From a virus, in the UHGV virus genome UHGV-0289455: a DNA stretch of 35,338 nucleotides, one strand, 5' to 3'. Below the pieces are notes generated by a model, which saw only the letters and a list, made by a program, of their open reading frames with translations, was not told where the DNA came from and ran no database searches. The translations under genes and the position numbers were made by a program. Shown in pieces: positions 4,805-35,338 of the stretch. Numbering within the stretch: the stretch's first letter is position 1; every line of letters starts with the position of its first letter.

Positions 4805-7800
4805 TCAGCTAATCGTGATGCCTGCAGTGGCTTTCTTCATCACAACAACCAGCAAATCGCTGATACTTGCTGTGGGATACCAGCCATTTACCCACCATGC
4901 TGATACAGAAAACTCCAGCGTCATGTGGCCGCGACCAGCAGGCATATCAATAACACCACTGTAAACCAGCGTATTATCCATCGCGGTACGGTTATAAATT
5001 TCAGCACCGTTTTTCTTCACTATCAGGCGGCATGACGAATAAGTATCGCTGTTCTCCCGCTCATGTCTGGCACCGCTGAAAGCCACCGCCGGAATAACAA
5101 TCTGCCGGTTAAACGGCTGATCGTCATAAACCCTGACGGTAATGGTTCCTGATGGCCAACGCTTCGGTGCACGGGAGTCACGAGGGAAAGCCTTACCCAC
5201 TGTTTTAACGAGATCGCCTTCAATCTGGTTTGCAGACAGTTTCCCTCTGATGACACAGTTCTCGTTAATGGTGACATTATTGAGCGTGCCGGTATTCGCC
5301 GTGATGGCTCCACTGATATCCGCATTGCGGGCTGTCAGCCTGCCATCCGGCGTCAGGGAAAACGTCGGAGGATTGCCGGATGACGTGATGCTCACCGCAA
5401 ACAGTCGCTTCAGGAACACGTCGTTCATGAACAGCTGATTCCCCTGCGCCACAAACAGCGGCGTGGTGTTGCCGTTCTCCGGGGTAATCATCGCAATGCG
5501 ATCGGCCTGCAGCAGAATGTTACTCAGGGTCTGACCATCAACATCCTCAATCCCCACGCCAATCCCGGCCACATAGGGAATACCGTTTTTTGTTTTCTGC
5601 ACCTTCAGCATATACATGGCATTCAGCTCATTGCGCGTGTCTGACTGAACCCGCTGGATTTGCTGTATGGTCACGGCCTGGTCACCCAGTTTTTTATCCG
5701 TGGTCGAGGTAATTTCACTCCCTTTTTTATCCACGTACTGGCGGACCTGTGCTATCTGTCGGGCGTTTTCTGACTGCCCCTGGCTGACAGTCTGTGAGAT
5801 TTCACTGCTAACCCGGTCCACTTTCTGGCTCATCTGCGCGATGGCCAGTGTCTGGTCCTCATTCTTTTTCGCAACCAGCTGCGTGAGGCTGTTTTCCGCC
5901 TCCCCGATTTTCCGGGTCACTTCTGCGATATCCGTGTCCATCCGCTGACGGATGTCTTCTTCCAGTTGCGTGACCTCCGTACGCAGCGCTGAAGCATCAA
6001 TGCGCTCTTTCAGTGCCTGACCCAGAAGCGTCTCATCTATCAGCCCCCGGAAAATTTCCAGATACCCTTCACCATCATTGCTGGGCTGCCCGCTGGCTTC
6101 CACAAAAGCAGATTTTCCCACCAGGTTGACGCTTCGCACGTAAAACCAGAAATCCGTCCCCGGCTTAATCCGGCTCCCCTGGACAGTCCACTGACTGCCG
6201 GACCCCAGATAACGGGCAGATTTTTCCACCTGTGCCGTGTTCGTGATGCGTTTTTCTGAGAACCAGAATTCAAACTGTATCGTCGGATCATACACCGCAA
6301 GACGCGGGACCGCCGTTATCTGAAAATACCCCGGCGTCAGCTCAATGGTGGCGGGTTTTGCAGGTGCGTTAATCCGGAAGGTGGTGGTGGCAGGTTCACC
6401 CTGCTGGCCATAACTGTTTATCGCCCGCACCGTCAGGGTGTATTCCCCCAGTGGCAGGCCACTGAAACGGTGCTCCGTGTCTGCGGTGATGGCGGTGGTC
6501 ACCAGTCTGGCATCCGTTCCCTTACCACTGGTCAGGCGCAGACTGAAGCGCACGCCCTTCACCACCCGCGGCGTGTCCCATTTAGCCTGCGCCAGATACT
6601 GGCCGTCAGCTGCGCTCACCTCCACCGTCAGGTGCTGTACTGCCGGTGGGATGACGCTGTTCAGGGAGCCTGACTGCGGCTCAAAGCGGGCACCGTTATC
6701 CACGATGGCTTCTTTTTCCGGTACGTGCTGCACCGCCGTGATGGCAAAGGTGCCGTCCGTGTTTTCCCGGATGGAGACACAGCGGAACAGGCGACGGCGC
6801 AGTGACGGCAGGGAGAGTCCCCACACACCGTATGTCTCCACACCATCCGGCAGGGTGCTGACCTGTATCCGGTCAGGCGCGGGGTGTGCGGTGATGGCCA
6901 CGCTCGCCGGCTTACCGCTGCCGTTAATCAGATTAACAGTGGCCGTGCCGGTCTCCGGCAGTGTCACCTCCCGGTCCAGCGTCAGGATACGGCTGGCGGC
7001 ATCGATGGACAGGACACGTCCGCCGGTCATGGTCCCGGCATAGTCGTTATCACAGATTTCAATGATGTCACCGGGTGTGTGCCGCAGCCCCTGAGACCCG
7101 AGCGTGAAATCCACCGTCTGCGTTTCCAGCAGTTCGGTCTTTATCACCCACAGCCCGGCACGGTGGGCCTGACCGCGGCTGGTACAGCCGAACGCGTCCA
7201 TCTTCAGCAGGTTGCGTCCGTAGCGCAGTATGGCTTCCGGGTCTTCCACCAGTTCCGTGGAGGTCTGCCAGCCGTTCTGCGGGTCGGTGTAATTCACCTC
7301 CACCGCCGTGTGCCGGTCCTTCAGGGCACTGAAGCTGTAGCGGAACCCCACGCCGTTATCATCCACCACCACATCGCTGTTGGTGTACGGCCACACCACA
7401 TCCGACGGGCGGTCCTGAACGAACGTCAGCGTCTGACCGTTCCATACCGGCATACAGCGCATCGCAGAGCAGAAATCACTGAGAACGTCCCACGCCTTAC
7501 GCTGTTGTGCCAGGTACGCATTAAAGGTCATCCGCGGCTCGGTCCCCCCGAAACCATCCGGGACCGTCTGGTCGCAGTACTGCCCGATGGCATACAGCGC
7601 CCACTTGTCCACATCCGCCGCCCCCAGACGTTTTCCCATGCCGTAGCGCGGGTGAGTCAGCATGTCCCACAGGCACCAGGCCGGGTTGTTGCTGTATGCC
7701 GGTTTCAGACTGCCGTCCCAGATACCACTGTACGTGCGTTTTTCCGGGTCATAGTTTGACGGCACCTGGATGATGCGACCGCGGATATGGTAGTTCACCG

Positions 7801-8497
7801 TCATCTGCTGGCCGCCGAACTGCTCCGCATCCACCTGCAGCCCCACAATGGCCGTGTTCGGGTAGCACTGTTTCACATCGATGATTTCGGTGTATGACGA
7901 CCACAGCGTCTTATTCTGCAGCTGGTCCGTGGTGCTGTCCGCCGTCTCCCTGACCATCCGGATGTTAAAGGGCCGGGGAGGCAGATTATCCAGAATCACC
8001 GAGGCCAGGAACTGTGAGGTGGTCTTGCCGTTAATGGTGACGTCCTTTTCCGTCACCCAGCGGCCATTACGCTGTAACTGAATCAGAATCCGGACAGAGG
8101 AAGGATTACGGTCGCCCCTTGACGTGGTCTGCACCAGTGACTGCACCCCGAAGGTAACCCGCAGGCGGTCAATGTTCGCGGACGTAATGGTGCGCGTCAC
8201 CGGTTTTGCCTTCGTCACTTCCACGCCCAGTCCGGTTTCAGCTCCGGAGGACTCAAAGCCTTCCGGTGGTGTCTGCTCCTGCTCCCCGGCACGCCAGACC
8301 GCGGTCACACCGTGTATCACGGGATTACCGTCCGTGTCCGTCAGCGGGGTTTTGTTCACCAGGATACTCTGCAGTCCCTTCACCGGACCTTCTATCGGTC
8401 CCTCACCAATCGCATCAATCACACTCATCATCTGCGTGGATTTGAGATTATCCTTCGCCTCACGAGGCGTGTGTGCCTTACCGCCACCTTTTCCCAT
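4805..8497 (-). CDS. J: central tail fiber / host specificity protein J
   Basis: 1230 aa. The C-terminus ...[25 protein letters not shown]...[77 protein letters not shown] is near-identical to the lambda J receptor-binding end as I recall it. Confidence 0.95.
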
Positions 8498-10167: not shown

Positions 10168-10866
10168 TTACTGCGAAAGTTTATTAATGGAAAGGAAACC
10201 GCCAAAATTGCCGACATTCCTGCGCAGTTCACACCCGCGCATGCACTTGCTGCATCTGTCCTTACGGATATCCGTGGTGGGTTTATCGAACTCATCCGCC
10301 ACAGCCTCGCCCGTGTAACCACACTCATCAGAGCGGTAGGTCCACATACAGGTGTTCGCCAGCATGATACGACCGGGAAACAGCGCCCCGTCCGTCTCGG
10401 TCGGTGTGGCCAGCACAAACGAGGCCGTCATGGCTGTCAGCTGCGACATCTGCTCCACCACCCAGCGGTCACTCAACTCCTGCTCCGGGTCCGCCGCCGG
10501 ATTGCCCGCAACGAAATTCACCGCATCCAGAAAACGGGCATACACCCGGCGGCGGACCACCGTGGCCCCCACCAGACTCTGCAGGTCCTCCGCCACCCCG
10601 GTGACAAGGCCAAACAGATTGGACACCGTCAGCGACGGGCGGGCACTGCTGCCCCGGCCGTTCATCTCAAAGCCGCTGCCGTCAATCGGGTATGCCTCAT
10701 ACTTACGCCCCTGCCAGGTGACCGGCTCCCCTTTTTCATTCAGCTCATTACAGAAAAAATACCGCTCACCGCCCTGTACCGTCAGGTCGATTTCCCAGAG
10801 TACCACCCGCGGTGACTGCTCTGATTTAACCGACTCGTTCAGACTTTCTTCGTGAATATCCTGCAT
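10168..10866 (-). CDS. L: minor tail protein L
   Basis: 232 aa, near-identical in pattern to lambda gpL (VVLWEIDLT...GGERYFFCNE...GRIMLANTC...FGGFLSINKLSQ). Confidence 0.92.
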   Translation of the reverse strand: MQDIHEESLNESVKSEQSPRVVLWEIDLTVQGGERYFFCNELNEKGEPVTWQGRKYEAYPIDGSGFEMNGRGSSARPSLTVSNLFGLVTGVAEDLQSLVGATVVRRRVYARFLDAVNFVAGNPAADPEQELSDRWVVEQMSQLTAMTASFVLATPTETDGALFPGRIMLANTCMWTYRSDECGYTGEAVADEFDKPTTDIRKDRCSKCMRGCELRRNVGNFGGFLSINKLSQ

Positions 10867-11195
10867 CAGTTCACCACCTGCTTAAACTCCGCGCTGAACT
10901 CAACGCGCAACATCCCGACCCGCGCAGACCACCCGGCACAGGTCACCTTTATCTGCCGGTATGCATAGGGTGGCTTCCACAAAAATGCCTTCCAGCCCCC
11001 GTGCTCTGCCAGGAACGCTTCCAGATGCCGGGCCTCCTCCCGGGTCACGGAAAGCGTCACCCTGTATGTTTTCAGGTCAGCATTCAGCCCTGCCGCCATA
11101 CGCTGTGAGTACCCGTCACCAAAACGCACTTCACGCACCGATGGCTGCGAGTTCACCTCCATATCCGGCTTCACTTTCCAGCGAAAGGTTTTCAT
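10866..11195 (-). CDS. M: minor tail protein M
   Basis: 109 aa, MKTFRWKVKP...VTCAGWSARVGMLRVEFSAEFKQVVN as in lambda gpM; overlaps L by ATGA. Confidence 0.92.
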   Translation of the reverse strand: MKTFRWKVKPDMEVNSQPSVREVRFGDGYSQRMAAGLNADLKTYRVTLSVTREEARHLEAFLAEHGGWKAFLWKPPYAYRQIKVTCAGWSARVGMLRVEFSAEFKQVVN

Positions 11196-25145: not shown

Positions 25146-25230
25146 ATCATTCCTCGTCAGCCATGACAAAAATATAACCGCTGGCTCTTTCATTTTTCTC
25201 CTGCGTCCAGCCCCTCTCTACCTGGAAGCA

Positions 25231-25557
25231 TCAAGGACGTGACGGCGTAAAGATAAATTGTCTCTTCACTCCCTGACAGGGGCGATTCTTTTCAAATCGC
25301 CATTTCGCCATGGCCTTCACCACTTCATCACGAAACAAATTATGAGGCTCTGAGCGGAGAAAAACGATCCGTGTCACAGTCCCATCAGCACCAATATCGA
25401 ACTTAACCTCAACCAGCCCCTTGATATAATTTGCTGCAGCATATTCCGGATATCGTGGATACACCGTCACTAATTGCCGGGGCTCATCAGCTTTTTGCTG
25501 CGAGCATCCCACTGCCAGGACAGATAACAGAAAAAGTAGTAAAAGGCGTCTTTTCAT
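25231..25557 (-). CDS. small lipoprotein consisting of a TonB C-terminal-like domain
   Basis: Start taken at MKRRLLLLFLLSVLAVGCSQQ (lipobox-like AVG-C). The rest (YPRYPEYAAANYIKGLVEVKFDIGADGTVTRIVFLRSEPHNLFRDEVVKAMAKWRFE) aligns by eye with the C-terminal domain of E. coli TonB. Confidence 0.6.
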   Translation of the reverse strand: MKRRLLLLFLLSVLAVGCSQQKADEPRQLVTVYPRYPEYAAANYIKGLVEVKFDIGADGTVTRIVFLRSEPHNLFRDEVVKAMAKWRFEKNRPCQGVKRQFIFTPSRP

Positions 25558-25867
25558 TTTTATTCCTACGGGTCTTATTCTGACAATATATCCTGTGTTC
25601 CAGACTGCCACATCACCACATCCTGTGCCATTATCTGACTCACATTACATACATCGCATCGGGATACAGTAGTAGCACTTTCTGTAATACAGCTTCCTGT
25701 TTCTTCCACCATCGCACCGGGATAAACCCGCGAATCATTAACGCGGTAAAAACCCGGTGTGCATCGTTTTTAATTATCCCCGCACACTCGCGCAGAGGAG
25801 TCTCCCTGTCGGGCTGCGGTCTCTGTTAATGAGGGAATATAGCGACGATACGGCGCATCAACAAAAC

Positions 25868-26341
25868 TTATTTCAGGCACTGAGTGCGGATATAGTCCTG
25901 TGCCCCTTCCAGTTGCTTGTGCATCGTCATCAGCCGCTCTCTGAGGGTGAAATAATCCCGTGTAACGGTGTCTGCCAGTTGGGGGCCGGTTGCATTATCC
26001 ACGCCGGAGGTGGTGGGGGCTTCACGCACGGAGCCTGGACAGGTGGCGTTGATCCGCAGGCGCTTACGACCAGCGGCAACGTCAGCGCGAAGAGTTTCAT
26101 TTTCAGCTCTCGCATCGGCTAATTCCCTCGAGTATTTTGCATCGAGCGCAGCAACATCGCGCTGGCGCACCTGCATATCAGTAATGGTTGCGTTCGCCAG
26201 CTTCAGTTCACTGGCTTTGTTATCGCGCTGCGCTTTGTAGGTAATCGCGTTATCACGGTAATGGTCTGTTGCCATCCACAGCGCACCACAGGCCACCAGC
26301 AGAATAACGATAAACGCGGAAAGCATTCGGTTTATGTTCAC
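25868..26341 (-). CDS. Rz: i-spanin Rz
   Basis: 157 aa, N-terminal TM then ...[59 protein letters not shown]...[24 protein letters not shown] matches lambda Rz. Confidence 0.92.
25930..26115 (-). CDS. Rz1: o-spanin Rz1 (lipoprotein, embedded in Rz in the +1 frame)
   Basis: [22 protein letters not shown]...[30 protein letters not shown] matches lambda Rz1. Confidence 0.9.
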
Positions 26342-26469
26342 CCCAGCAACCCCGACGAAGACAACATCATCCAGGCCATGGAAAGAAAAAGAGCAACCAG
26401 CATTAGTGAAAATGAAATGCCGACAATTACACAGAGGATCTTCGCCAGCGTTATGAGTTTGTCTGACAT
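26338..26469 (-). CDS. 43-aa single-pass membrane protein between R and Rz
   Basis: ATG preceded by a strong Shine-Dalgarno (AGGGAGGA, 6-nt spacer); stop overlaps the Rz start. One hydrophobic helix ([26 protein letters not shown]). Confidence 0.45.
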
Positions 26470-26483
26470 GCTTAATCCTCCCT

Positions 26484-26666
26484 TCACGATTTCAACGCAA
26501 TGACCAGTTTTGCCAGCCCATACAGCATCGGGGACACAGCAACACCGACCGCCACCCACTTAATGGCAAAAGCCAGTGCTCTGCTGATGTCATCAGTTAC
26601 AGGCGCTTTCAGTTCAAGGCCATTTTTCATAGTCAACCTCAACAGAATTCGTTTACACTTCGCCAT
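26484..26666 (-). CDS. 60-aa protein with C-terminal hydrophobic helix between R and Rz
   Basis: ATG at 26664-26666 preceded by GGGAG; [60 protein letters not shown]. Confidence 0.4.
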
Positions 26667-26822
26667 GTTCTCCCTTGCCTTACTCAAGGTCAGAAACACA
26701 AAACCTCGCTTGGTGCCAACAAACGGGTTTTTTACTTTTATTCACTTACGTTTCGCCAGTTCGCAGGATTTCGTGTTATCCGCCCGCGTGGCCATTCCTC
26801 ATTTTTCAGCAAAATATTCTGC

Positions 26823-27356
26823 TTATCTGTCGATACCCCAGCACGCCAGCGCGCTCTCCTGGTCACGACGGGATACCTGACCGTAACAGTTGTTTGAACG
26901 AATACGGCAGTCTCTGCCACCGTCCTTAATCCACCAGCGAATCGCTTCGCAGGCACCTTTTCGATCACCAGCATTAATTCGTCTGTAAAACGTCGACGGG
27001 AAACACTTACCGGGACCAATGTTGTACGGACAGAATGACGCGATCCCCGCTTTCTGGGGTTCGGTCAGCGGCACTCTGATGTTTTTCTCCACCCACGCCA
27101 GCGCTTTATCACGCTCAATGGCGTTAACCTGGTCGCATTTTTCCTTCGACAACTTCATGCCCGGAACGACAGGTTTGCCATCCACCATGATGGCACCACG
27201 GCAGATGGTCCAGATACCTGCACCATCACGGTATGCCGTGGTGTGGTTGCCTTCCTTTTCATCCAGAAACTGGTCGAGAATGTCAGGCGCAGGCGCACCA
27301 GCGGCAATCAGCGCCAGAACGGCAGCCGACAGGCCGTATTTGATTTTGGTGTTCAT
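26823..27356 (-). CDS. R: SAR endolysin (phage-21 R-like lysozyme with N-terminal signal-arrest-release segment)
   Basis: 177 aa; N-terminal weakly hydrophobic Ala/Gly-rich segment (YGLSAAVLALIAAGAPAP), then a lysozyme-like E...D...GIWT.C.G pattern. Confidence 0.8.
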   Translation of the reverse strand: MNTKIKYGLSAAVLALIAAGAPAPDILDQFLDEKEGNHTTAYRDGAGIWTICRGAIMVDGKPVVPGMKLSKEKCDQVNAIERDKALAWVEKNIRVPLTEPQKAGIASFCPYNIGPGKCFPSTFYRRINAGDRKGACEAIRWWIKDGGRDCRIRSNNCYGQVSRRDQESALACWGIDR

Positions 27357-27392
27357 GGATATATTAAATATTCAGCCGCTGTCCCTGGCCCA

Positions 27393-28283
27393 CTAAATAC
27401 GCACTTTAAGATAAGTCAGCCCCGGATGAAGCCAGTAAGCCGGCACTTTTTTAAAGGGTGGAGTATTAAAATCACGAAGAAGAGCCTCCCGCACAATTGC
27501 ATCCTTATCAGCACCACTGGCCAGCGCTTCAATCTCAGCGGCTACCTGAAGATATCCCATGCAACGGCCAACGCGCTTCATCAGCCCCTGCTTTTTATTG
27601 TTCTTCAGGTAATCAATGGCAAATTCAATGAGCTCCTCACTGTGCTGGTGCGATGGAGGTGTTACTTTCCCATTTTCTGAGATGGTTATTTTCCCAGCAT
27701 CACCGGATACAACAAAGGATGGCCGGTTACACTCCCATTCCGGGTCACTGAAATTATCATTATGAATACTGAAACACTCTGCGAGATTTCTGCTCATCAC
27801 TTTCCGACAATAATCGTCAAACGCAGCAAACTGCTTTTCATCGCCAGAAGGCACCAATATCGACCATTTCTTATTCAGCTCAACGACGTAGCTCTCCAGT
27901 TTTTCAATACGTGATTCAACATCATCTTTTTCTGACCGCAGTGTTGACGGCGGCATCTTCAGAGAACAAGTAATTCTTCCCGGTAGCTTTCCTTTGTAGG
28001 TTATCAACACATCCTGCGCCTCTAAAATTACGGGGCGCTTTTCCGGCAACGGTTCGTTCCATTCACATAACCCGGCAGCAACATCCATGAAAAACTGCTT
28101 CGCCTGCTTTTTCGCCTCAGCTTCGTAAAACTCCAGCGTGGCACCTTCAGTACGGTCAAGACTAATCGCCACATCTGGCAACAACAGCGACGCTTGCCCG
28201 TCACCTTCCGACTTCACAGTAACAGTAACCTTATCCCCGTAATTATTTATCCCCTTAACAACCAGTTCATATTTTTTATTCAT
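27393..28283 (-). CDS. 296-aa soluble protein of unknown function inserted between holin and endolysin
   Basis: ATG at 28281-28283, 4 nt after the holin stop, with a GGGGAGAG Shine-Dalgarno inside the holin 3' end. No signal peptide, TM segment or motif I recognise; GC appears lower than in neighbouring genes. Confidence 0.6.
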   Translation of the reverse strand: MNKKYELVVKGINNYGDKVTVTVKSEGDGQASLLLPDVAISLDRTEGATLEFYEAEAKKQAKQFFMDVAAGLCEWNEPLPEKRPVILEAQDVLITYKGKLPGRITCSLKMPPSTLRSEKDDVESRIEKLESYVVELNKKWSILVPSGDEKQFAAFDDYCRKVMSRNLAECFSIHNDNFSDPEWECNRPSFVVSGDAGKITISENGKVTPPSHQHSEELIEFAIDYLKNNKKQGLMKRVGRCMGYLQVAAEIEALASGADKDAIVREALLRDFNTPPFKKVPAYWLHPGLTYLKVRI

Positions 28284-28287
28284 CACT

Positions 28288-28503
28288 TTACTCTCCCCGC
28301 GCCGCCTTACGCCGGTCCTCTTTGATTTTGAAATACAGGTTAGTCAGGTACGTCAGCAGCCCAAACAGCAGACTCCCCAGCACGCCTATTGCCGCCCACT
28401 GAGACGGGGAAACCCTGTCCAGCAACTGCAGGAACCAGTAGCCCGTTCCCACCGCTGACGTGGTGTATGACACACCTGTTGTGATTTTTTCCATCTGGTA
28501 CAT
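28288..28503 (-). CDS. S: pinholin S (phage-21 S-like, dual-start motif M-Y-Q-M)
   Basis: [71 protein letters not shown] matches S21 as recalled (71 aa). GGGAGA Shine-Dalgarno upstream. Confidence 0.85.
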
Positions 28504-28579
28504 ACCCCGTCTCCCGTTATCCGGAAGCTCACAACAATATAAAGACCACCGGCACACACCGATGGTCCCTTGCGCAGGC

Positions 28580-28825
28580 TTACATCATCATGTCGCTGTC
28601 AGGTGTGGGTTCACCGCCATCTGAAGCACTCCCGTCACCCGCGATACCTTCCGGCTCCGGAACCGCTGGTACGCCCAGCAGCTCATCCAGAATGGCATCC
28701 ACTTCTGCATCAAGACGCGACTCAAGGTTCTGGCGGAGTTTCTGTTTCAGTGCGCTCAGGACTTCTTCAGAGCGCAGGACTTCCTTCACTGCCTCAGCAG
28801 TGACCAGGGATGTGATTTCTGACAT
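28580..28825 (-). CDS. 81-aa acidic hypothetical protein upstream of the holin
   Basis: Internal ATG of the tracked 139-aa ORF chosen (MSEITSLV...); very acidic C-terminus; weak ribosome-binding site. Confidence 0.35.
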
Positions 28826-28862
28826 GGGATTTTCTCGTTGAAAGGTGTTGTCAAGAAAGTGA

Positions 28863-29045
28863 CTACGGAATGAGCGGATCTTCGGGTTTGCTTCCGGCTG
28901 ACTGACTGGCGCTGATTCTCTCAGCGGCCCTTTTATCAATCTGCCTGCGCCAGAAATCGCGCACTGCCCTGTACCCACCCGAAAGAAGATACATAACACA
29001 GACTGCCATACAGAAGTACAGCATTACCTGATGAATAAATGTCAT
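28863..29045 (-). CDS. 60-aa small membrane protein
   Basis: ATG start, one hydrophobic helix (VMLYFCMAVCVMYLLSGG) then a basic tail; weak ribosome-binding site. Confidence 0.3.
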   Translation of the reverse strand: MTFIHQVMLYFCMAVCVMYLLSGGYRAVRDFWRRQIDKRAAERISASQSAGSKPEDPLIP

Positions 29046-29063
29046 AATTTCTTACCGTTATGG

Positions 29064-29180
29064 TTGACAATGAGAACTGTTTTCATTTAGAAATGATTGA
29101 TGTCGAAAACATCTTTTCTTTACATTCTCCATTGGGATTACCTCCGCCAGCTTCCATTCCTGCCGCTGGCGGCTTTTTTT
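29064..29180 (+). ncRNA. candidate opposite-strand transcription unit (TTGACA -35, weak -10, terminator) in the nanS-p 3' intergenic region
   Basis: Perfect TTGACA at 29064-29069; a 7-bp stem (cgccagc/gctggcg) plus TTTTTTT at 29145-29180 on the plus strand. No convincing ORF. Confidence 0.2.
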
Positions 29181-29181
29181 A

Positions 29182-31158
29182 TCATGCCGCGATGTCCGCG
29201 TTGTTCACTTCCACCTTCACACTGTCAATCAGCAGCGTATATGTCGCCGCCTTTGATATGCCTGTCAGTTGCAGTTTGTCCGCCGCCCCTGATGCCGGAG
29301 ATTTCACCAGTGTGAACGGCGTCCCCCGTTTCTCATCCAGTACCGGCGTCACCTGAATGCTGTTGTTTCCGGCAAACTCAAAAGCCAGTGTGTGCCATCC
29401 GTTATCAAAGACCCCGAACGTTTCCAGCTTCGCATTCGGCTTCTTGTGGTGCATCGCGTTCAGGTTCGTCGCATCCGTCTGCAGAAAGAAGGACATCAGC
29501 ATGTCGTTGCCTTCCTCTGCCAGCGTCACTCCCTCCGGCAGGGACGACAACTGCCAGTAAATGCCCAGGGCAAACTGATTCGGCACCAGTGAACCCGGCA
29601 ACTTAAACCGTACGCTCACACGTCCCCCCTTCTTCAGTAACTCCACTCCCTGTCCGGCTGCATCATGCTCCAGAAACCAGATGTGGTTTTCCGGTTTATT
29701 CAGTTGCAGGGCCTTACCTCCCGTAGCCCCCGCATCACTGACCACCGCTTCAGCAATGTTTTTGTTAACATTGTCTCCGCTCGCCGGTTTGTGATAATAG
29801 CGCCAGCCCTGTGATGCCAGGTCTTCGCCGGACGCCAGCAGACTCATCAGGGTTCGGTTACTGACCGGGGCTTCCGGCTCTCTCTCCGTACCTTCACCGG
29901 AAGGTCCGGTGGGCTTCACCGTATCAGGCTGTTTTCCGGTAATGAATTCAGCGTTTCTCCCGGCATGCACAAGAATCGCCGTTGCCAGACGGTCGGAAAT
30001 AATCCCACGACGTGCCCATGATCCAAAATGCGTTTTACGGTCAGCCGTCGTCCAGGTTTTGGCGTCCGTTCGACCACCGGCTCCGTAATACCCAATATCC
30101 GCAACATCCGGATCTTCTGACGGCTCGTTGGTACCCACATTTCGCCCGTTTTCATCCGTCATAAACGGCACAAAGAAGATTTTTTTTGCGGATTTCGTCT
30201 TGTATGCACCATACACCGCATCGTATTGCGAAGAATAAGTCTGCTTCCAGTAGTAGGTCGTGTCGCCACAAATCCAGGGAACCGATGACGGAGAGCCCCC
30301 GAGACACTGACCTCCGAATTCCGACAGGTCAGAACGATATTTTTCCACCATGGAATCAAACAGCCCCGGCTGGGTGGCGTATGCACCCTGTTTCAAATCA
30401 AACTCGCCCTGCATCCAGACCACTGCAAGCAGAATATTTTTAGGGTTGGCCTTCAGTGCGGCCTGAGTACGGGTAAGCAGGTCCTTGTACAGTGGCTTAT
30501 CTACACCCCAGCGTGCCGAGGTCTCGCTTGCGCCGGTGGATTCGCTGAAGGTACCTTCATCGCCCGCCAAAAATGCAGAACCACCACGGCAGCACGGAAC
30601 CAGAAGAATACCGGCATTCGCCGGAATAAACGGCAACAATTTCTTCGCGATATGTAATCCCTGCCCCACGCATCCATACTGAGCTGCACTGGCTTTCGGG
30701 TGTGAAAACTTACTCAAATCCTGAACATCATGCAGGCAGTGGTCCGCAGGAATAATGTCATTGTAGTTACAGAACGCACCACCCGGCGTGACAGTGCTGC
30801 GACGCGCCAGCTGTTTAATACGCGGGTCCGGACGGTCATATGTCTCCGGCAGCGGAAGCCCTTCACCATACGCCATACCGTTTGACTGCCCGGCCAGGGC
30901 AACAACAAAGTAATACTCCGGGTTGCTGGTGGTGCTGATAACTGCGCCTTCTCCATCCGACGGCTTCACCACCACAGGTGTGGTGACATCACCTTCCGCC
31001 GCAATGGCCTGCATCAGGGTATAAGGCGTGATGGCCACCGGACTGCCAAATGGCTGCCACCCCTCCTTCAGTTTTTGTGTCAGTCGTTTCGCAAGGTCTG
31101 ACGGCGATGCCGCCCTGACAACATCATAGTGTTTAAATGCCATGGTTCTTTCCACCAT
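29182..31158 (-). CDS. nanS-p: prophage-encoded sialate O-acetylesterase NanS-p (DUF1737 N-domain, SGNH/SASA esterase domain, C-terminal carbohydrate-binding region)
   Basis: 658 aa. N-terminus MAFKHYDVVRAASPSDLAKRLTQKLKEGWQPFGSPVA is the DUF1737 signature, followed by VVALAGQSNGMAYGEG (SGNH GQSN motif). Sits between the Q/tRNA region and the holin, as in Stx-phage-like prophages. Confidence 0.85.
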   Translation of the reverse strand: MVERTMAFKHYDVVRAASPSDLAKRLTQKLKEGWQPFGSPVAITPYTLMQAIAAEGDVTTPVVVKPSDGEGAVISTTSNPEYYFVVALAGQSNGMAYGEGLPLPETYDRPDPRIKQLARRSTVTPGGAFCNYNDIIPADHCLHDVQDLSKFSHPKASAAQYGCVGQGLHIAKKLLPFIPANAGILLVPCCRGGSAFLAGDEGTFSESTGASETSARWGVDKPLYKDLLTRTQAALKANPKNILLAVVWMQGEFDLKQGAYATQPGLFDSMVEKYRSDLSEFGGQCLGGSPSSVPWICGDTTYYWKQTYSSQYDAVYGAYKTKSAKKIFFVPFMTDENGRNVGTNEPSEDPDVADIGYYGAGGRTDAKTWTTADRKTHFGSWARRGIISDRLATAILVHAGRNAEFITGKQPDTVKPTGPSGEGTEREPEAPVSNRTLMSLLASGEDLASQGWRYYHKPASGDNVNKNIAEAVVSDAGATGGKALQLNKPENHIWFLEHDAAGQGVELLKKGGRVSVRFKLPGSLVPNQFALGIYWQLSSLPEGVTLAEEGNDMLMSFFLQTDATNLNAMHHKKPNAKLETFGVFDNGWHTLAFEFAGNNSIQVTPVLDEKRGTPFTLVKSPASGAADKLQLTGISKAATYTLLIDSVKVEVNNADIAA

Positions 31159-31403
31159 CTGAAAAATAATTCTTTAAAATACCTGACATGTAATACAGAA
31201 AAAACACAAAACCATACCTTAAATAAAAACCTCATCATCAAGCAGATATGCATGGATAAACTACAAGACGAGATATAAACCACCCTGCATTTAAATAAAC
31301 AATAAACAACATCAGAAAAATAATTCTGCTCTATGGTTTACATTCAAAAATATCATTTATACTTTTCAGAACATCACCAGCAAGACATAAACAAGGAGAC
31401 TAA

Positions 31404-31739
31404 ATGAAGTGGATTGTGATTGATACAGTTATCCAACCATCATGCGGAATATCTTTTTCAGTCATATGGAGTAAAATAAAATTAATAATCTGGTATCAAT
31501 CGGATGCTTTCTTACCTCCTGAAAGTATATTTACACTGACTCACACAGGTATCATGCTCAATAACAAAGTGCTACCTGTAACCATTTACAACGTAGCACC
31601 ATTCAATAAAACATTCTGGAATTTAATCAAAAACAGCCAGGAATGTCCTACAAATACAGATAACGTATTGAATGAATGCTTTAATAACCGTTGCACTCTG
31701 CAAATATGTCCTTATGGACTAAAACAACAAAGTCCATAA
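31404..31739 (+). CDS. hypothetical protein encoded on an AT-rich moron, opposite to the late operon
   Basis: 111-aa ORF with a canonical AAGGAG Shine-Dalgarno 7 nt upstream; the surrounding segment (about 31160-31760) is conspicuously AT-rich; GC-rich hairpin at 31781-31803 downstream. Cysteine-rich C-terminal part. Confidence 0.5.
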
Positions 31740-32186
31740 GGAGTTTACTCACATCTGACAAAATCAATATAAACAGCCCCTCCGGAGAGGGGCTGGAGAG
31801 TGGCGCTATGTGCCATTGCATGGTGCCGGGTGCCTCCCGGTGAATTCAGTACCAGCACCTGAATCCGCGATTATCCCATATACCTACTCGCTGATTGCCC
31901 CTCCGCACAGGGGGATTCACCATGCCAGTTTCTTTTAACAAACTCCCCGCAAACCAGACAACAGTCAACCGCCTGAATTGTGAAGTATTTAAAAATTTCT
32001 CCCGCTAACTGATACCCGGCTAACAGTCTGGCGTTTTCTTTTTCAGCAACGGGAAAGCAACAACCACCACACCCGCCACCAGCACACCGTCAGCCAGCAC
32101 TGACATTATCCGGCTGCTGCAATGCCACTCACAAAAACAGTAAGCAATCACTTTTTACCGTAACAAGTGATAATCCAGATATGTAT

Positions 32187-32540
32187 CTACCCCAGATGAG
32201 TAATCCGAAGTTCATCCATACCACAGGTACTGGCTATTCTGTTGTACTCCTGAACAAGAGCAAATAATTCTGAATTAGCAACCATGAACTCATCGCAAAC
32301 CCTCTGTATAGCATCACTATTCAGAATAATAACGTCTCTTCCCGAAAGACGATCAGGAGTACAGAACAAAACTGTCAAACGGCTGAAGGCCTTTGCTCGT
32401 CCTGCATTGACTATATCAATACGCTGCCTAAGGATGAAACACCCCGACGCCTCATCAATATTCACTCTACCCACACCATATGAATGATAAATATTTAATG
32501 CTGAAAAAACCATTAGACCGTATAACAAACACTCAATCAA
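32187..32540 (-). CDS. hypothetical protein in the stx-equivalent slot (weak call)
   Basis: 117-aa ORF starting with TTG (first ATG at codon 10), no convincing Shine-Dalgarno; low GC. Confidence 0.25.
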   Translation of the reverse strand: MIECLLYGLMVFSALNIYHSYGVGRVNIDEASGCFILRQRIDIVNAGRAKAFSRLTVLFCTPDRLSGRDVIILNSDAIQRVCDEFMVANSELFALVQEYNRIASTCGMDELRITHLG

Positions 32541-32653
32541 TACTTAACAGAACTTTTATTTTTGACAAACATAAAATATTTTCAACAATATCCTGAGCCA
32601 GGTATATTTCAGTATAAGGCTCTGCCGGAAGGAATCTGGAAGAATGAATATAG

Positions 32654-32727
32654 CGCGCTGTACTGGATTCGAACCAGTGACCGATTGCTTAGAAGGCAAT
32701 TGCTCTGTCCGGCTGAGCTAACAACGC
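32654..32727 (-). tRNA. tRNA-Arg (anticodon UCU)
   Basis: Minus strand GCGTTGTTAGCTCAGCCGGACAGAGCAATTGCCTTCTAAGCAATCGGTCACTGGTTCGAATCCAGTACAGCGCG: cloverleaf with a GTTCGAATC T-loop and a TCT anticodon loop; CCA not encoded. Confidence 0.85.
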
Positions 32728-32827
32728 TGAATACCGATAATGGACCGCCATCGGGGACCCGCCCCCGCACCAACAACCCTGTTATCGTGTCGTCTGCTCT
32801 TCCTGATAAGCTAATGGCGGTTTGTGA

Positions 32828-32903
32828 TGGTGGCCCTTGCTGGATTTGAACCAGCGACCTGGCGATTATGAGTCGCTCGCTCTCACCACTGAGCTAAAGG
32901 GCC
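32828..32903 (-). tRNA. tRNA with CAU anticodon (tRNA-Ile2/Met type, ileZ-like of Stx-phage tRNA clusters)
   Basis: Minus strand GGCCCTTTAGCTCAGTGGTGAGAGCGAGCGACTCATAATCGCCAGGTCGCTGGTTCAAATCCAGCAAGGGCCACCA, with encoded CCA; resembles E. coli ileX as recalled. Confidence 0.85.
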
Positions 32904-32942
32904 GGGAGCAGAATAATAACGGTCCGTAATTAATTCCGCAAT

Positions 32943-32964
32943 AAAAAACCCGCTCGGCGGCGGG
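32943..32964 (-). terminator. tR'-like rho-independent terminator downstream of pR'
   Basis: Minus strand: stem cccgc/gcggg followed by TTTTTTATT. Confidence 0.6.
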
Positions 32965-33013
32965 TTGTAGAAACTCTTCTAACGTCAGGCATAAAAAGCC
33001 CATTGTTATGACG

Positions 33014-33041
33014 AATTTACCACAGATTCCGGAAAAATCAA
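33014..33041 (-). promoter_or_regulatory. late promoter pR' (TTGATT, 16-bp spacer, TAAATT) immediately after Q
   Basis: Minus strand ...TTGATTtttccggaatctgtggTAAATT...; lambda pR' has TTGACT/TAAATT as I recall. Lies 0-30 nt downstream of the Q stop. Confidence 0.6.
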
Positions 33042-33046
33042 CCTTG

Positions 33047-33868
33047 TTACCTAGTTACCTTTTTTAACTGCCGCTCAGCCCATGCTTCTTCAATATCAAA
33101 CCGGGTCACCAGCGCATCATAGAATTTCTTAACTGTTTTTTCCCATGACGCGCGTGTTATCTGGTTTGTCACCTCGCATATAGCATTAAATGCCTCCGTT
33201 GATGGTAGTCTTTCATAGCCACGACCACCACAACGCTGGCAGTCTCTGATAACAGGCATACCACGTTTTACCGACTCTTCACGATGAATGGCGACACCAC
33301 GCCCACGGCAATCCTTACAGGCGGTGGAAACCTCACCCTTTCCGCCACACTCCGGACAGGCAACTTTTACCACCTCCCTGACTTTTTTCCATTCTTCCCA
33401 GTAAGACGAATACACACCTTTCGTACACTTTGCCCATACCGGCGGCTTACCATCCGGATACTGGACCTTGTTTGTAAAAACTACGCTTTCAATAAATTTT
33501 TCCCCATAGCAACAAGGGCACTGCTTTTTACTCGCTGCGCTGCGGGCATAATCCTCAAAAGCGTACGAAGCCATAATGCGCATCACTACCGGTTTTATTT
33601 CTGCCGGAAGTTTTCTCAACGCCGCCACACGATCGCACCGACTGAGTGCATAATCTGCCAGTAATTCTGTTGCCCGCGCCCTGTCATTCATACTGATGCC
33701 CATTTTCCCCAGGAACGCAGAAAAACCCATCTCAGCCCGATTCTGTGTCATGCCCTGCGCGGCCATCACATCAGTGATACTCAGCGCATCTTTTGACGTT
33801 GAGGCCGATGCATCGGTCAGGCCAGGGGATTTTGGGGAGTAGTATTTCGGTAAATCTTCCAGTTTCAT
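33047..33868 (-). CDS. Q: late antiterminator Q (zinc-finger Q family, QuuQ-like)
   Basis: 273 aa with four CxxC pairs (CPCC, CPEC...CKDC, CQRC); located immediately upstream of pR' and the tRNAs. Confidence 0.7.
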   Translation of the reverse strand: MKLEDLPKYYSPKSPGLTDASASTSKDALSITDVMAAQGMTQNRAEMGFSAFLGKMGISMNDRARATELLADYALSRCDRVAALRKLPAEIKPVVMRIMASYAFEDYARSAASKKQCPCCYGEKFIESVVFTNKVQYPDGKPPVWAKCTKGVYSSYWEEWKKVREVVKVACPECGGKGEVSTACKDCRGRGVAIHREESVKRGMPVIRDCQRCGGRGYERLPSTEAFNAICEVTNQITRASWEKTVKKFYDALVTRFDIEEAWAERQLKKVTR

Positions 33869-33882
33869 TTTTTGACCTGCTC

Positions 33883-34245
33883 TTAATGCATTATGGGGTA
33901 AATCTTCACCCCCAGACGTCCACCAGATACTGGCTGACCACGAACGATATTGATTTCATCAAACTGCTCATCGTCCATTAACACTCCCGCATGCGTCAGC
34001 GCATCCAGCGGTGCTTTCAGGATATTGTCCAGGTCGCGACGACGCTTATCCGGTGGCTCTGCAATCACCTTTATCGCCAGCCTTCCGGACAGGTTTAATT
34101 TCAGCCGCTGCTGGCGAACAATTAGCGCCACATCACGGCGATAACGCTTTCCGGCCTCCGAGATGAAATACGTATTGCCATGACGTCGCCAGTAGGTATT
34201 CACCGTCGGCGGGTAAGGCAAAACAAATTCTATGCGTTCAGTCAT
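33883..34245 (-). CDS. rusA: Holliday junction resolvase RusA
   Basis: 120 aa, VLPYPPTVNTYWRR...DKRRRDLDNILKAPLDAL motif typical of RusA. Confidence 0.85.
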   Translation of the reverse strand: MTERIEFVLPYPPTVNTYWRRHGNTYFISEAGKRYRRDVALIVRQQRLKLNLSGRLAIKVIAEPPDKRRRDLDNILKAPLDALTHAGVLMDDEQFDEINIVRGQPVSGGRLGVKIYPIMH

Positions 34246-35304
34246 TCATGCTTTCCACTTCAGGACACCCGAATTTCTCGCGTGCATTAAAAAACGAATC
34301 AGCAACAACAGCTGGCTGCCGTGTTTTTCTTCAAAATCTTTTACCCCGGCGTGCAGTTCGTTATGACATTTACGGCACAGCGGAATAACAAACAAATCAT
34401 CAGCCTTTGTTCCCATACCTCCCAGGCCATGATCAATGATGTGATGCGGATCATCTGCCTGATTACCGCACGTCATGCATTTCTGCGTTTTTACCCAGCG
34501 CGTGTATACAGGCATCTCTTCCCGTTGTGGTTTCTGGCGCTGGAGATACTGAGCCGGAGACTCCGGATCAACGGCGATGCTTACTAACGTCTTTTCCTGG
34601 AGTGGGGGCTGTTGCTGGTGGACGTGAAGTGGCAGCGCAATATTTTTTGTGCGCTGCTTCAGTATGCTGGTGGCAGTCTGTTCTCCCGGTACGATGTCAC
34701 TCTCACGGTATACGGAGCGGATTTTTTCCACCGGTAATCCCAGTGAACGACACAATACAGACTCCGGAAGCGCATCAGCCACCTGATTGCAGACCGCCCA
34801 CCAGGATAATTCGGCCAGCGATAACTCCCTCTCCTGCGTACCGCTGATTGCGTGACGGATGACGTCAATCATCCATGCTGACAAGTTTTGGTGAGCAAGT
34901 TGCTCAAGTGATTCTGAGGTCTGGTCACACAACTGGTTGTCGCAGTGCCAGCACAACACCATTGCGCCGGTACCATAACGGTGAATGACGGTTTCACTGT
35001 GGTGATAATCACCGTGTGGCCACTGGCAGGATTTAATATGGCGCAACAGCCAGTCAGACAGTGCACCAGCGCCGCCAGCAGCACGAATCACACGCTCATT
35101 GCTGAAAAATGGCAGTAATGATTTATCCTCCGCCAGCGGCTGGCGAACGGCAGGGACGACTCCGGATGGCAGGCCGCACATGCTTTTCGGTTCCGGCTCC
35201 ACCAGCACTCGAGGATTATGAAATATCTGTATGGATTCACGGCCCGGCTTAAGGACCACCAGCCCAAGCTCAGGCACCAGAACAGGTCTAAGTAATACCC
35301 GCAC
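34246..35304 (-). CDS. nin-region protein with C-terminal HNH-like Cys/His motif (DUF968/YdfU-like); start uncertain
   Basis: 352-aa ORF beginning at a GTG near the window edge. The C-terminus has CMTCGNQADDPHHIIDH...LCRKCHNELH. Stop abuts the rusA start. Confidence 0.5.
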   Translation of the reverse strand: MRVLLRPVLVPELGLVVLKPGRESIQIFHNPRVLVEPEPKSMCGLPSGVVPAVRQPLAEDKSLLPFFSNERVIRAAGGAGALSDWLLRHIKSCQWPHGDYHHSETVIHRYGTGAMVLCWHCDNQLCDQTSESLEQLAHQNLSAWMIDVIRHAISGTQERELSLAELSWWAVCNQVADALPESVLCRSLGLPVEKIRSVYRESDIVPGEQTATSILKQRTKNIALPLHVHQQQPPLQEKTLVSIAVDPESPAQYLQRQKPQREEMPVYTRWVKTQKCMTCGNQADDPHHIIDHGLGGMGTKADDLFVIPLCRKCHNELHAGVKDFEEKHGSQLLLLIRFLMHARNSGVLKWKA

Positions 35305-35338
35305 GTTACCTCCAGATCCGTTGCTGGAAAGTGCGGGA

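Follow-up and report, generated by a model that had tools for sequence, protein, structure and literature searches.

Results

The window analyzed here is the whole 35,338-nucleotide stretch of virus genome UHGV-0289455, in which the late genes are encoded on the minus strand. The late region opens with a gene for a 273-aa Q-type late antiterminator carrying a DnaJ-like zinc-finger segment (33047-33868, minus), assigned by Pfam (PF03589 Antiterm, E 6e-55) and phrog_127. In a genome 100% identical over window positions 25159-35338, PGAP names its product "antitermination protein". A candidate pR' and tR' region follows (32940-33046, minus). The putative pR', picked by eye, would comprise a -35 element TTGATT (33041-33036), a 16-nt spacer, and a -10 element TAAATT (33019-33014), a combination with 8 of 12 matches that falls under the promoter-scan threshold. 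Just 3' of Q, a pattern scan located a strong intrinsic-terminator-like hairpin (stem 32966 to 32947, minus) followed by a T-run. An Rfam Trp_leader match over 32940-33046 reached 25.5 bits, short of the gathering score of 41, and was read as a terminator look-alike, not a leader.

Two tRNA genes were called downstream of Q by ARAGORN and Rfam, tRNA(CAU) at 32828-32903 (minus; Rfam tRNA 72.5 bits; tRNA-Ile in PGAP, i.e., the Ile2/lysidine type) and tRNA-Arg(UCU) at 32653-32727 (minus; Rfam 68 bits). Between them, 32728-32827 (minus) holds a decayed phage tRNA-Arg(UCG), where ARAGORN called no tRNA. A three-way alignment matched both ends of this remnant to the Stx2a-phage counterpart; its interior, anticodon arm included, is scrambled. 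In Stx2a phages, the intact tRNA-Arg(UCG) is located between tRNA(CAU) and tRNA-Arg(UCU). Farther along the late strand lies a nanS-p type sialate O-acetylesterase gene (29182-31158, minus; Pfam DUF1737, SASA, and DUF6645), and the PGAP annotation of the identical genome places a holin, a lysozyme, and a "lysis protein" further 3'. Q, tRNAs, cargo, nanS-p, holin, endolysin, and spanin are arranged as in Stx-converting phages. Pfam, ARAGORN, and PGAP together bear out the order given in an earlier note made from the sequence alone: Q, a tR'-like terminator, tRNA(CAU), tRNA-Arg(UCU), the slot, nanS-p, and the lysis genes.

The slot between the tRNAs and nanS-p contains four parts: ORF92, a tciA remnant with an eroded tciB, an STnc100 sRNA gene, and iraM on the plus strand. 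A BLAST comparison with a Stx2a phage gave matches at 32643-32943 (tRNAs) and 31775-31983 (sRNA) and nothing between, so the segment replacing stxAB is 31984-32642 only, 659 bp rather than the roughly 1.5 kb proposed earlier, and the iraM insertion fills a separate second gap between STnc100 and nanS-p. Slot DNA had no similarity to the stx segment of the Stx2a phage (L003), and tblastn of that phage's StxA and StxB against the whole window returned nothing below E = 1, confirming a Stx-phage layout without stx. The related statement that no StxA- or StxB-sized ORF is present is literally wrong, as the 92-117-aa ORF has the size of StxB, although this ORF is unrelated to StxB and all-helical. 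All ORF coordinates reported earlier exist; the description of the slot as holding "only weak ORFs and hairpins" had to be abandoned, given a full-length STnc100, a Pfam DUF3927 gene, and a conserved ORF92. Terminator-like hairpins are enriched (5 found versus 1.7 +/- 1.2 in shuffles), with the GC hairpins turning out to be STnc100 stems. Among 5426 complete E. coli genomes, 863 carry the whole slot with a coverage of ≥80%, one of them 100% identical to the window.

iraM (31404-31739, plus) is an AT-rich moron (34% GC) opposite to the late operon, annotated by PGAP as "anti-adapter protein IraM" and matching NCBIfam PRK09919; it scored 162.4 bits against the IraM model (NF007393) with a cut-off of 121. 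In E. coli K-12, IraM is an anti-adaptor that protects RpoS from RssB. The window gene scores above the IraM cut-off but differs in being a prophage moron. The adjoining AT-rich spacer (31159-31403; 29% GC), which presumably holds the promoter of iraM and the 5' region of nanS-p, had no homology to the Stx2a phage by BLAST.

The first late gene after the tRNAs, ORF92 (32187-32465, minus), encodes a conserved 92-aa protein (phrog_2873, E 7e-70). It lies within a 117-aa ORF (32187-32540) that had been described as poorly initiated, and it starts at an internal GTG at 32465. The family ranges from 91 to 99 aa, its members begin at the position equivalent to this GTG, and homologues have a clear Shine-Dalgarno there, whereas that of the present allele is weak. 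The 25 extra codons of the longer ORF belong to an AT-rich leader (32466-32652, minus; 31% GC); dN/dS over the first 30 codons of the 117-aa ORF was 0.73, and AlphaFold pLDDT was below 50 for its residues 1-25. Sequence comparison indicates that ORF92 itself is under purifying selection. Against a 56%-identical homologue, dN/dS was 0.27-0.35, differences fell at third codon positions 54 times versus 35 and 33 times at the others, and the ORF92 frame was the sole open one in both diverged copies. Among 1.84 billion representatives, 21 matches were recovered, including 91-95-aa proteins starting at the internal GTG position, and homologues with identity as low as 21-39% retain both the length and the motifs FSxLxV..PD and ANxEL..V.EYN. 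By alignment and AlphaFold2, ORF92 has the length, the two long helices, the FSxLxV..PD loop, and the ANxEL..V.EYN motif of the family; the predicted structure is a two-helix hairpin (AlphaFold2 pLDDT 88.5), and family pI is acidic to neutral (4.8-7.0).

ORF92 is carried by 1187 complete E. coli genomes, about a fifth, and in all 30 records sampled from these, PGAP annotated nothing over 32160-32652. Relatives in Citrobacter, Morganella, and Serratia prophages follow Q and/or phage tRNAs and precede the holin, and the order Q/tRNAs, ORF92, holin holds in the window and in loci L011, L015, L016, and L017. A plasmid-like contig (L013) departs from this order, although a tRNA-Thr still lies 580 nt upstream of its ORF91. 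Here a pair of tRNA and ORF91 is present even outside a phage late region. ORF92 had no matches in Pfam, NCBIfam, or PADLOC, the family having no Pfam entry, and its region had no match in Rfam. A tblastn search of 50,697 phage records matched mEp460 only, and a search for related loci with a narrow ORF92 alignment led to a single locus. Two candidate relatives were rejected: GapR/UPF0335, with a best match of only E 0.06 in a profile search of PDB sequences and the family pI of 4.8-7.0 set against it, and TciC of phage P1, which is only 35 aa long.

Downstream of ORF92, 28 nt at 32152-32179 (minus) are what is left of the 3' end of tciA, a TerB-like gene, with 23 of 28 positions identical to the tciA end in phage JLK-2012 and the alignment contiguous with that of tciB. 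tciB itself is represented by a 43-aa short form of the DUF3927/TciB-like small membrane protein with a GTG start (32020-32151, minus; Pfam PF13064, E 1.7e-27, 95.6 bits versus a gathering threshold of 25; phrog_1470 "TciB-like"; PGAP WP_000562553.1). Indels in the 5' part have removed the first of two hydrophobic segments, and the C-terminal one alone remains. The protein accordingly lacks the pair of hydrophobic helices seen in TciB of P1 and JLK-2012, and in place of a TerB-like tciA directly preceding and overlapping the gene there is only the 28-nt remnant. Intact tciA-tciB pairs occur in L004, L007, L011, and P1, and intact ORF92-TerB-DUF3927 cassettes exist elsewhere, for example in the Citrobacter prophage L011. 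The short form outscores the long forms in Pfam (95.6 versus 71.7 and 51.3 bits) and therefore may be a maintained variant, not a decaying gene. A 28-codon hydrophobic ORF (ATG at 32107), previously likened to a type I toxin, proved to be the C-terminal half of this DUF3927 gene. It matched none of the type I toxin families searched (Hok, Ldr, Ibs, TisB, ShoB, and others), Pfam and NCBIfam returning DUF3927 only, and no Rfam antitoxin family overlapped 32020-32151 at E ≤ 1. A literature search for "tciB" and "DUF3927" found nothing functional. The remaining plus-strand ORFs, antisense to ORF92 or its leader (32181-32267, 32284-32487, and 32480-32596), had no significant family matches.

Next after the cargo comes an sRNA gene of the STnc100 family that carries its own intrinsic terminator (31765-31954, minus; Rfam RF02076). 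At 132.4 bits (E 2e-30) it exceeds the gathering score of 47, and it covers model positions 1-206 of 206. Its terminator consists of a 9-bp GC-rich stem (31795-31774, minus) followed by TTTATATT. Immediately 5', a conserved block (31955-32019, minus) with the pattern TCACAATTC ... TTGAC ... TGTTAAAA is shared by all eight aligned STnc100 copies from five loci; its promoter-like makeup suggests that it is the sRNA promoter. PGAP annotates a pseudo-CDS antisense to the sRNA. STnc100 accounts for the hairpins 3' of DUF3927 and for a supposed GGGGG ribosome-binding site of a plus-strand ORF (31922-32008), the G-run being an STnc100 stem on the opposite strand; that ORF is interrupted by stop codons or a frameshift in three of eight homologous copies. 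The sRNA is found at the same position in four loci used for comparison (a Stx2a phage, mEp460, JLK-2012, and STEC1585), the last with three tandem copies. Its start is about 65-75 nt beyond the last cargo gene in the present prophage, mEp460, JLK-2012, and the Stx2a phage, where it lies 75 nt after stxB (stx2B). STnc100 is also named EcOnc27, or sRNA103 of E. coli O157:H7, and its location directly 3' of stx2B has been described (PMC12370729, PMC12711010). As cited in PMC12711010, EcOnc27 was reported to bind Hfq. STnc100 copies in EHEC were detected by RNA-seq and Northern blot, the latter for STnc100_4 (PMC5331693), and the family is related to PasD of EPEC, which sits upstream of an esterase gene (bioRxiv 10.64898/2026.05.13.724894). 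In keeping with this family, the copy in the window aligns to the full-length model, ends in an intrinsic terminator, directly follows the cargo, and lies upstream of a sialate esterase gene.

Comparison with known phages placed these parts in context. Stx2a phages of the 933W/Sp5 type, such as Stx2_EC3283 (LC645409), have the same order of Q, tRNA(CAU), tRNA-Arg(UCU), cargo, STnc100, nanS-p, and lysis genes, with DNA identity between Stx2_EC3283 and the window of 87% in the tRNA block, 76% in STnc100, and 70-91% in nanS-p. Within STnc100, the two copies diverge in the centre, between the conserved stems, but share 96% identity over the last ~80 nt. The Stx2a cargo is stxA-stxB, whereas that of the window is ORF92, the tciA remnant, and short tciB; the window further differs in its decayed middle tRNA-Arg(UCG) and in the iraM insertion between the sRNA and nanS-p. 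JLK-2012 carries tciA-tciB at the corresponding site, with the phage tRNAs before and nanS-p after it, and its tciB is 93% identical to that of the window at the DNA level from about codon 11 on. In P1, tciA-tciB-tciC, with a TerB-like protein and a DUF3927 membrane protein, is likewise flanked by tRNA genes. Relative to both, the window has lost tciA save 28 nt, and indels have put IAYCFCEWHC in place of the first hydrophobic helix of TciB; the window also has an extra gene, ORF92, before the tci cassette, as does the Citrobacter prophage. The non-Stx lambdoid phage mEp460_ev081 (LR597641) shares 31817-35338 at 93% identity (98.8% in the slot part), a stretch that includes ORF92, DUF3927, most of STnc100, both tRNAs, and Q. 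In this phage the STnc100 3' end differs, and a TolA-like gene stands 3' of the sRNA in place of iraM and nanS-p. Across the loci compared, four different cargoes (stx2AB; tciA-tciB; ORF92 with eroded tciB; and a TolA-like gene with an AraC-family gene and ORF116) occupy the same position, each followed by at least one STnc100 copy, so that the slot is a cargo-exchange site, in agreement with the earlier view of a recombination hotspot.

Discussion

Probably, the slot is the usual accessory-gene slot of a lambdoid late operon, filled with non-toxin cargo of three independent modules. The first, on the late strand, is the leftover of an ORF92-tciA-tciB cassette in which ORF92 stayed intact, tciA was deleted to its last 28 nt, and tciB lost its first membrane helix via small indels. 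Judging by position, Q-modified RNA polymerase starting at pR' would transcribe it on induction, as it does stxAB in Stx phages. The second is an sRNA gene of the STnc100/EcOnc27 family that is complete in itself, with the conserved block upstream, a structured body, and an intrinsic terminator, and that makes up the constant downstream border of exchangeable cargo. Swapping would likely proceed by recombination between the conserved flanks, the tRNAs on one side and STnc100 on the other; for STnc100, the idea is based on five loci only. AT-rich iraM, on the opposite strand in the second gap between the sRNA and nanS-p, forms the third.

Two other readings of the slot appear highly improbable. 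That it is essentially empty, with chance ORFs and hairpins and perhaps a type-I-toxin-like peptide and a plus-strand peptide with a GGGGG ribosome-binding site, would suit the weak or noncanonical ORF starts, the lack of a PGAP gene over 32160-32652, and the single hydrophobic helix with a KKK tail in the C-terminal half of DUF3927. This reading is largely refuted: the hairpins and the GGGGG run both lie within a full-length Rfam sRNA, the plus-strand ORF is broken in three of eight homologous copies, and the hydrophobic peptide belongs to a Pfam family whose intact members have two helices and are coupled to a TerB-like gene, with no type I toxin family or antitoxin RNA matched. The purifying selection on ORF92 and its distant homologues point the same way. 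Hardly any more credible is a former Stx phage that lost stxAB by deletion. The tRNA and STnc100 flanks are homologous to those of Stx2a phages (87% and 76% identity), and Zhu et al. (bioRxiv 10.64898/2026.05.13.724894) discuss repeated stx loss beside esterase-linked sRNAs, but no stxA or stxB similarity remains at the protein or DNA level. The slot instead holds unrelated genes whose own homologues are placed alike in non-Stx phages from other genera, Q belongs to the PF03589 type, and the phages compared that have this cargo, such as mEp460, are themselves non-Stx. A deletion remnant devoid of conserved ORFs, which the earlier note said would speak against its reading, describes only the tciA/tciB part of the slot and fails for ORF92 and the sRNA.

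A further alternative concerns ORF92 alone, namely that it is no protein gene and owes its conservation to a structured RNA or a regulatory region 3' of the tRNAs. PGAP leaves it uncalled in all sampled genomes, the region is rich in AT, its start is weak, and it lies consistently near tRNA genes. We nevertheless regard this as very unlikely, since the third-position excess (54 versus 35 and 33), the dN/dS of 0.27-0.35, and the unique open frame in both diverged copies are properties of a coding sequence, protein homologues down to 21-39% identity keep length and motifs, the AlphaFold model is confident, and Rfam gave zero matches.

Under the preferred reading of an accessory-gene slot with non-toxin cargo, the locus is a known architecture built from known elements, and the new points, ORF92 and the tciA deletion, are modest. 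nanS-p and this late-region layout were already known in non-Stx prophages (PMC10462455), and for Stx-phage biology our analysis changes little. STnc100 copies may serve as homologous "linkers" for exchange of late-operon cargo, stx included, with tandem arrays like that of STEC1585 as a by-product. The wider proposition, that lambdoid prophages of enterobacteria widely share ORF92 as a "first late gene" physically linked to clusters of phage tRNAs and that STnc100 copies are the linkers, is speculative, and we think it rather unlikely to hold as a whole. ORF92 could have a phage-specific role, candidates being lysis timing, handling of late transcripts or tRNAs, and countering host defence that targets tRNAs.

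For annotation, RefSeq lacks this conserved 92-aa gene in every sampled record, and an Rfam search should come first for any small ORF or "RBS-like" G-run in the slot. The exact coordinates of the exchangeable cargo are set by the tRNA block and STnc100, which aids comparison of stx-positive with stx-negative relatives. Its fixed place by the phage tRNAs and the lysis cassette makes ORF92 a cheap knockout target.

Stx-Phage-Like Layout and the Segment Equivalent to stxAB

The late operon runs on the minus strand, where a Q-type antiterminator (33047-33868; Pfam PF03589, E 6e-55), tRNA(CAU) (32828-32903), tRNA-Arg(UCU) (32653-32727), and a nanS-p type esterase (29182-31158; DUF1737, SASA, DUF6645) were recovered in this order. 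Escherichia coli strain E1 is 100% identical to window 25159-35338, and its downstream genes were annotated by PGAP (RefSeq) as DUF1378, DUF826, class II holin, lysozyme, and 'lysis protein'. Given this gene order and the E1 annotation, the Stx-phage-like architecture of Q, tRNAs, nanS-p, and lysis genes proposed in an earlier note is real, and every ORF coordinate listed there was present in the sequence. Directly after the Q stop codon, a promoter-like TTGATT-N16-TAAATT was read by eye, followed by a strong terminator-like hairpin (32966->32947(-)). This candidate pR' and tR'-like terminator (32940-33046(-)) would yield a short transcript of ~55-65 nt, presumably a counterpart of lambda 6S RNA or of StxS, an sRNA of Stx phages. 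The 100-nt spacer between the tRNA genes (32728-32827(-)) is a decayed tRNA-Arg(UCG) gene, intact at the same place in Stx2a phages; both ends can still be aligned, whereas the central part with the anticodon arm is scrambled, and an identical kind of remnant occurs in the non-Stx lambdoid phage mEp460. The 3' end of tRNA-Arg(UCU) (32653-32655) reads CTA where mEp460 and the Stx2a phage encode CCA, hence the 75-nt gene called by ARAGORN versus 77 nt in mEp460.

The slot between tRNA-Arg(UCU) and nanS-p, where Stx phages carry stxAB, lacks stx as claimed; tblastn of StxA and StxB from the Stx2a phage Stx2_EC3283 (LC645409) against the whole window gave no match below E = 1. BLAST of the window against this phage returned four aligned segments, covering nanS-p and the lysis region, the sRNA STnc100 (31775-31983), and the tRNA block (32643-32943). 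No alignment was found between STnc100 and the tRNA block, and the stxAB counterpart is therefore 31984-32642 (659 bp, versus 1368 bp in the Stx2a phage). In the window, this segment holds ORF92 (the 92-aa core of a 117-aa ORF), a tciA remnant, and an eroded tciB (tciB'). A second, distinct gap lies between STnc100 and nanS-p and measures ~630 bp, compared with ~231 bp for the Stx2a phage; it is filled by iraM, which scored above the NCBIfam model cut-off, and by the AT-rich DNA around this gene (29-34% GC). A perfect 11-bp inverted repeat (CCTTATGGACT ... AGTCCATAAGG; 31710-31741) lies over the last codons and stop of iraM, with no T-run after it on either strand.

Of 5426 complete E. coli genomes, 863 carried the 1494-bp interval 31159-32652 at ≥80% coverage, in most cases with >99% identity; its PGAP labels are 'IraM | DUF3927 family protein | hypothetical protein'. 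The prophage segment is very common, previously sequenced, and annotated in part.

Contents of the Slot

According to the earlier note, the slot was essentially empty, with only weak ORFs and hairpins; instead, ORF92, tciB', and STnc100 were identified there. The 117-aa ORF matches phrog_2873 (E 7e-70), and its frame is the sole one open in both the window copy and a 56%-identical homologue (P0014). Most changes between the two fall at third codon positions, with a dN/dS of 0.35 overall, 0.27 over the last 86 codons, and 0.73 over the first 30. When 1.84 billion representatives were searched by profile, 21 relatives were found, including 91-95-aa proteins that begin opposite residue 26 of the ORF. 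The codon there is GTG (32465), which the homologue shares. At the equivalent start, a Shine-Dalgarno sequence is present in comparator locus L007 (AGGAG) and in the Morganella and Serratia copies (AAAGGA). AlphaFold2 placed residues 1-25 of the long form at pLDDT <50, and predicted two long helices with a conserved joining loop for the 92-aa form (pLDDT 88.5, pTM 0.75). Sequence comparison and modeling together indicate a conserved 92-aa coding gene (32187-32465(-)) inside the 117-aa ORF. The ORF called 'poorly initiated' earlier is a gene that starts at the internal GTG; its homologues have a Shine-Dalgarno there, and this allele has only a weak GGGT. ORF92 had no family match in Pfam, NCBIfam, or PADLOC, and fold searches returned generic helical hairpins only.

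The genomic context of ORF92 was consistent. Gene orders were ORF95, TerB, DUF3927, holin in Citrobacter; Q, methyltransferase, (tRNA-Asn), ORF96, holin, lysozyme in Morganella; and Q (same type as the window's), three tRNAs, ORF99, lysis genes in Serratia. In a second E. coli prophage, a relative lies downstream of an AraC-family gene, with STnc100 and nanS-p after it. Outside any phage late region, two E. coli plasmid-like contigs (L013/L014, 4001-4276) encode a 91-aa, 35%-identical family member with tRNA-Thr 580 nt upstream; its neighbors are a PapB/K88-type fimbrial operon, a phage-type integrase, and a Rep3 replication gene. A tblastn search of 50,697 phage records found ORF92 in mEp460 only, and none of 30 records sampled from the 1187 complete E. 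coli genomes carrying ORF92 had a PGAP annotation over it.

The ORF at 32020-32151(-), which contains the hydrophobic 28-codon candidate described previously as 'type-I-toxin-like', matches Pfam DUF3927 (E 1.7e-27) and a PHROG 'TciB-like' family. Phage JLK-2012 carries tciA (TerB-like) and tciB at exactly the same place, between tRNAs and nanS-p, and phage P1 carries tciA-tciB-tciC with flanking tRNA genes, annotated 'tellurite or colicin resistance or inhibition of cell division (by homology)'. Aligned to JLK-2012, tciB' is 98.8% identical from SSRIMSVLADG... to almost the gene end; its 5' part is tciB-related with many small indels that remove the ATG and first hydrophobic helix, and 23 of the 28 nt at 32152-32179 match the end of tciA, in its last codons. 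In hydropathy profiles, one hydrophobic segment was seen versus two in intact TciB. From this alignment and hydropathy, the 28-codon candidate is the C-terminal half of a known-family protein in truncated form, and no toxin family or antitoxin RNA was matched in Pfam, NCBIfam, or Rfam. The short form is clearly abundant and scored higher against Pfam DUF3927 (95.6 bits) than long forms (71.7 and 51.3 bits); it may still be functional. In contrast, hokD with its sok antitoxin RNA (Rfam, 106.7 bits), just past the right end of the window and upstream of a DUF968 gene in the same prophage (10588-10912 of locus L001, in which 6652-6777 corresponds to window 31810-31935), forms a true type I toxin-antitoxin system.

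The hairpins, taken earlier for mere GC hairpins, belong to a full-length STnc100 (Rfam RF02076; 31765-31954(-); 132.4 bits versus a gathering score of 47), whose terminator is the hairpin at 31795-31774. The supposed GGGGG ribosome-binding site is the opposite-strand view of the STnc100 CCCCCUGUGCGGAGGGG stem, and the plus-strand 28-codon candidate (31922-32008), antisense to the STnc100 unit, has stops or a frameshift in three of eight copies and is therefore not a gene. Likewise antisense to STnc100, a partial 'hypothetical protein' pseudogene annotated by PGAP at 31810-31935(+) (L001 6652-6777) most likely arose as an artefact of annotation transfer by protein homology.

STnc100 Flanks Exchangeable Cargo

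In four comparator loci the STnc100 family immediately follows the cargo: 75 nt past stxB in LC645409, after DUF3927 in mEp460, after tciB in JLK-2012, and, in the prophage of E. coli STEC1585 (NZ_CP129252), as four copies in one late region. There, one copy follows a TolA-like gene (5575-5787) and three diverged tandem copies (7547-7742, 7806-8005, 8067-8256; ~260-nt spacing) lie just upstream of nanS-p. This position agrees with the literature, in which STnc100 is located 75 nt past the end of the stx2 operon (PMC12370729), the Hfq-binding sRNA EcOnc27/sRNA103 overlaps STnc100 (PMC12711010), RNA-seq reads exist for all 11 copies listed in EDL933, with a Northern blot confirming one of them (PMC5331693), and PasD, upstream of a sialate esterase gene, is related to STnc100 (Zhu, Shabalina and Storz, bioRxiv 10.64898/2026.05.13.724894). 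Across the eight aligned copies, a conserved block of ~60 nt upstream of STnc100, beginning immediately past the preceding gene's stop codon, is probably its own promoter region. We infer a transcription pattern in which ORF92 and tciB', judged by position, would be part of the Q-dependent late transcript, as is stxAB, with STnc100 and iraM using their own signals.

The earlier observation was thus confirmed in part, and its interpretation holds for the Stx-like layout and the swap site, whereas its central claim, a slot with essentially nothing in it, is wrong. Nearly everything in the slot is an already known element. What is new is modest and comprises the precise limits of the exchangeable segment, the reconstructed tciA deletion, and a conserved, usually unannotated ORF92 family whose position between phage tRNAs and lysis genes is fixed. 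The tRNA block on one side and STnc100 on the other are conserved and bound the cargo; four different cargoes were observed between them, a pattern that fits exchange through homologous recombination at the two borders.
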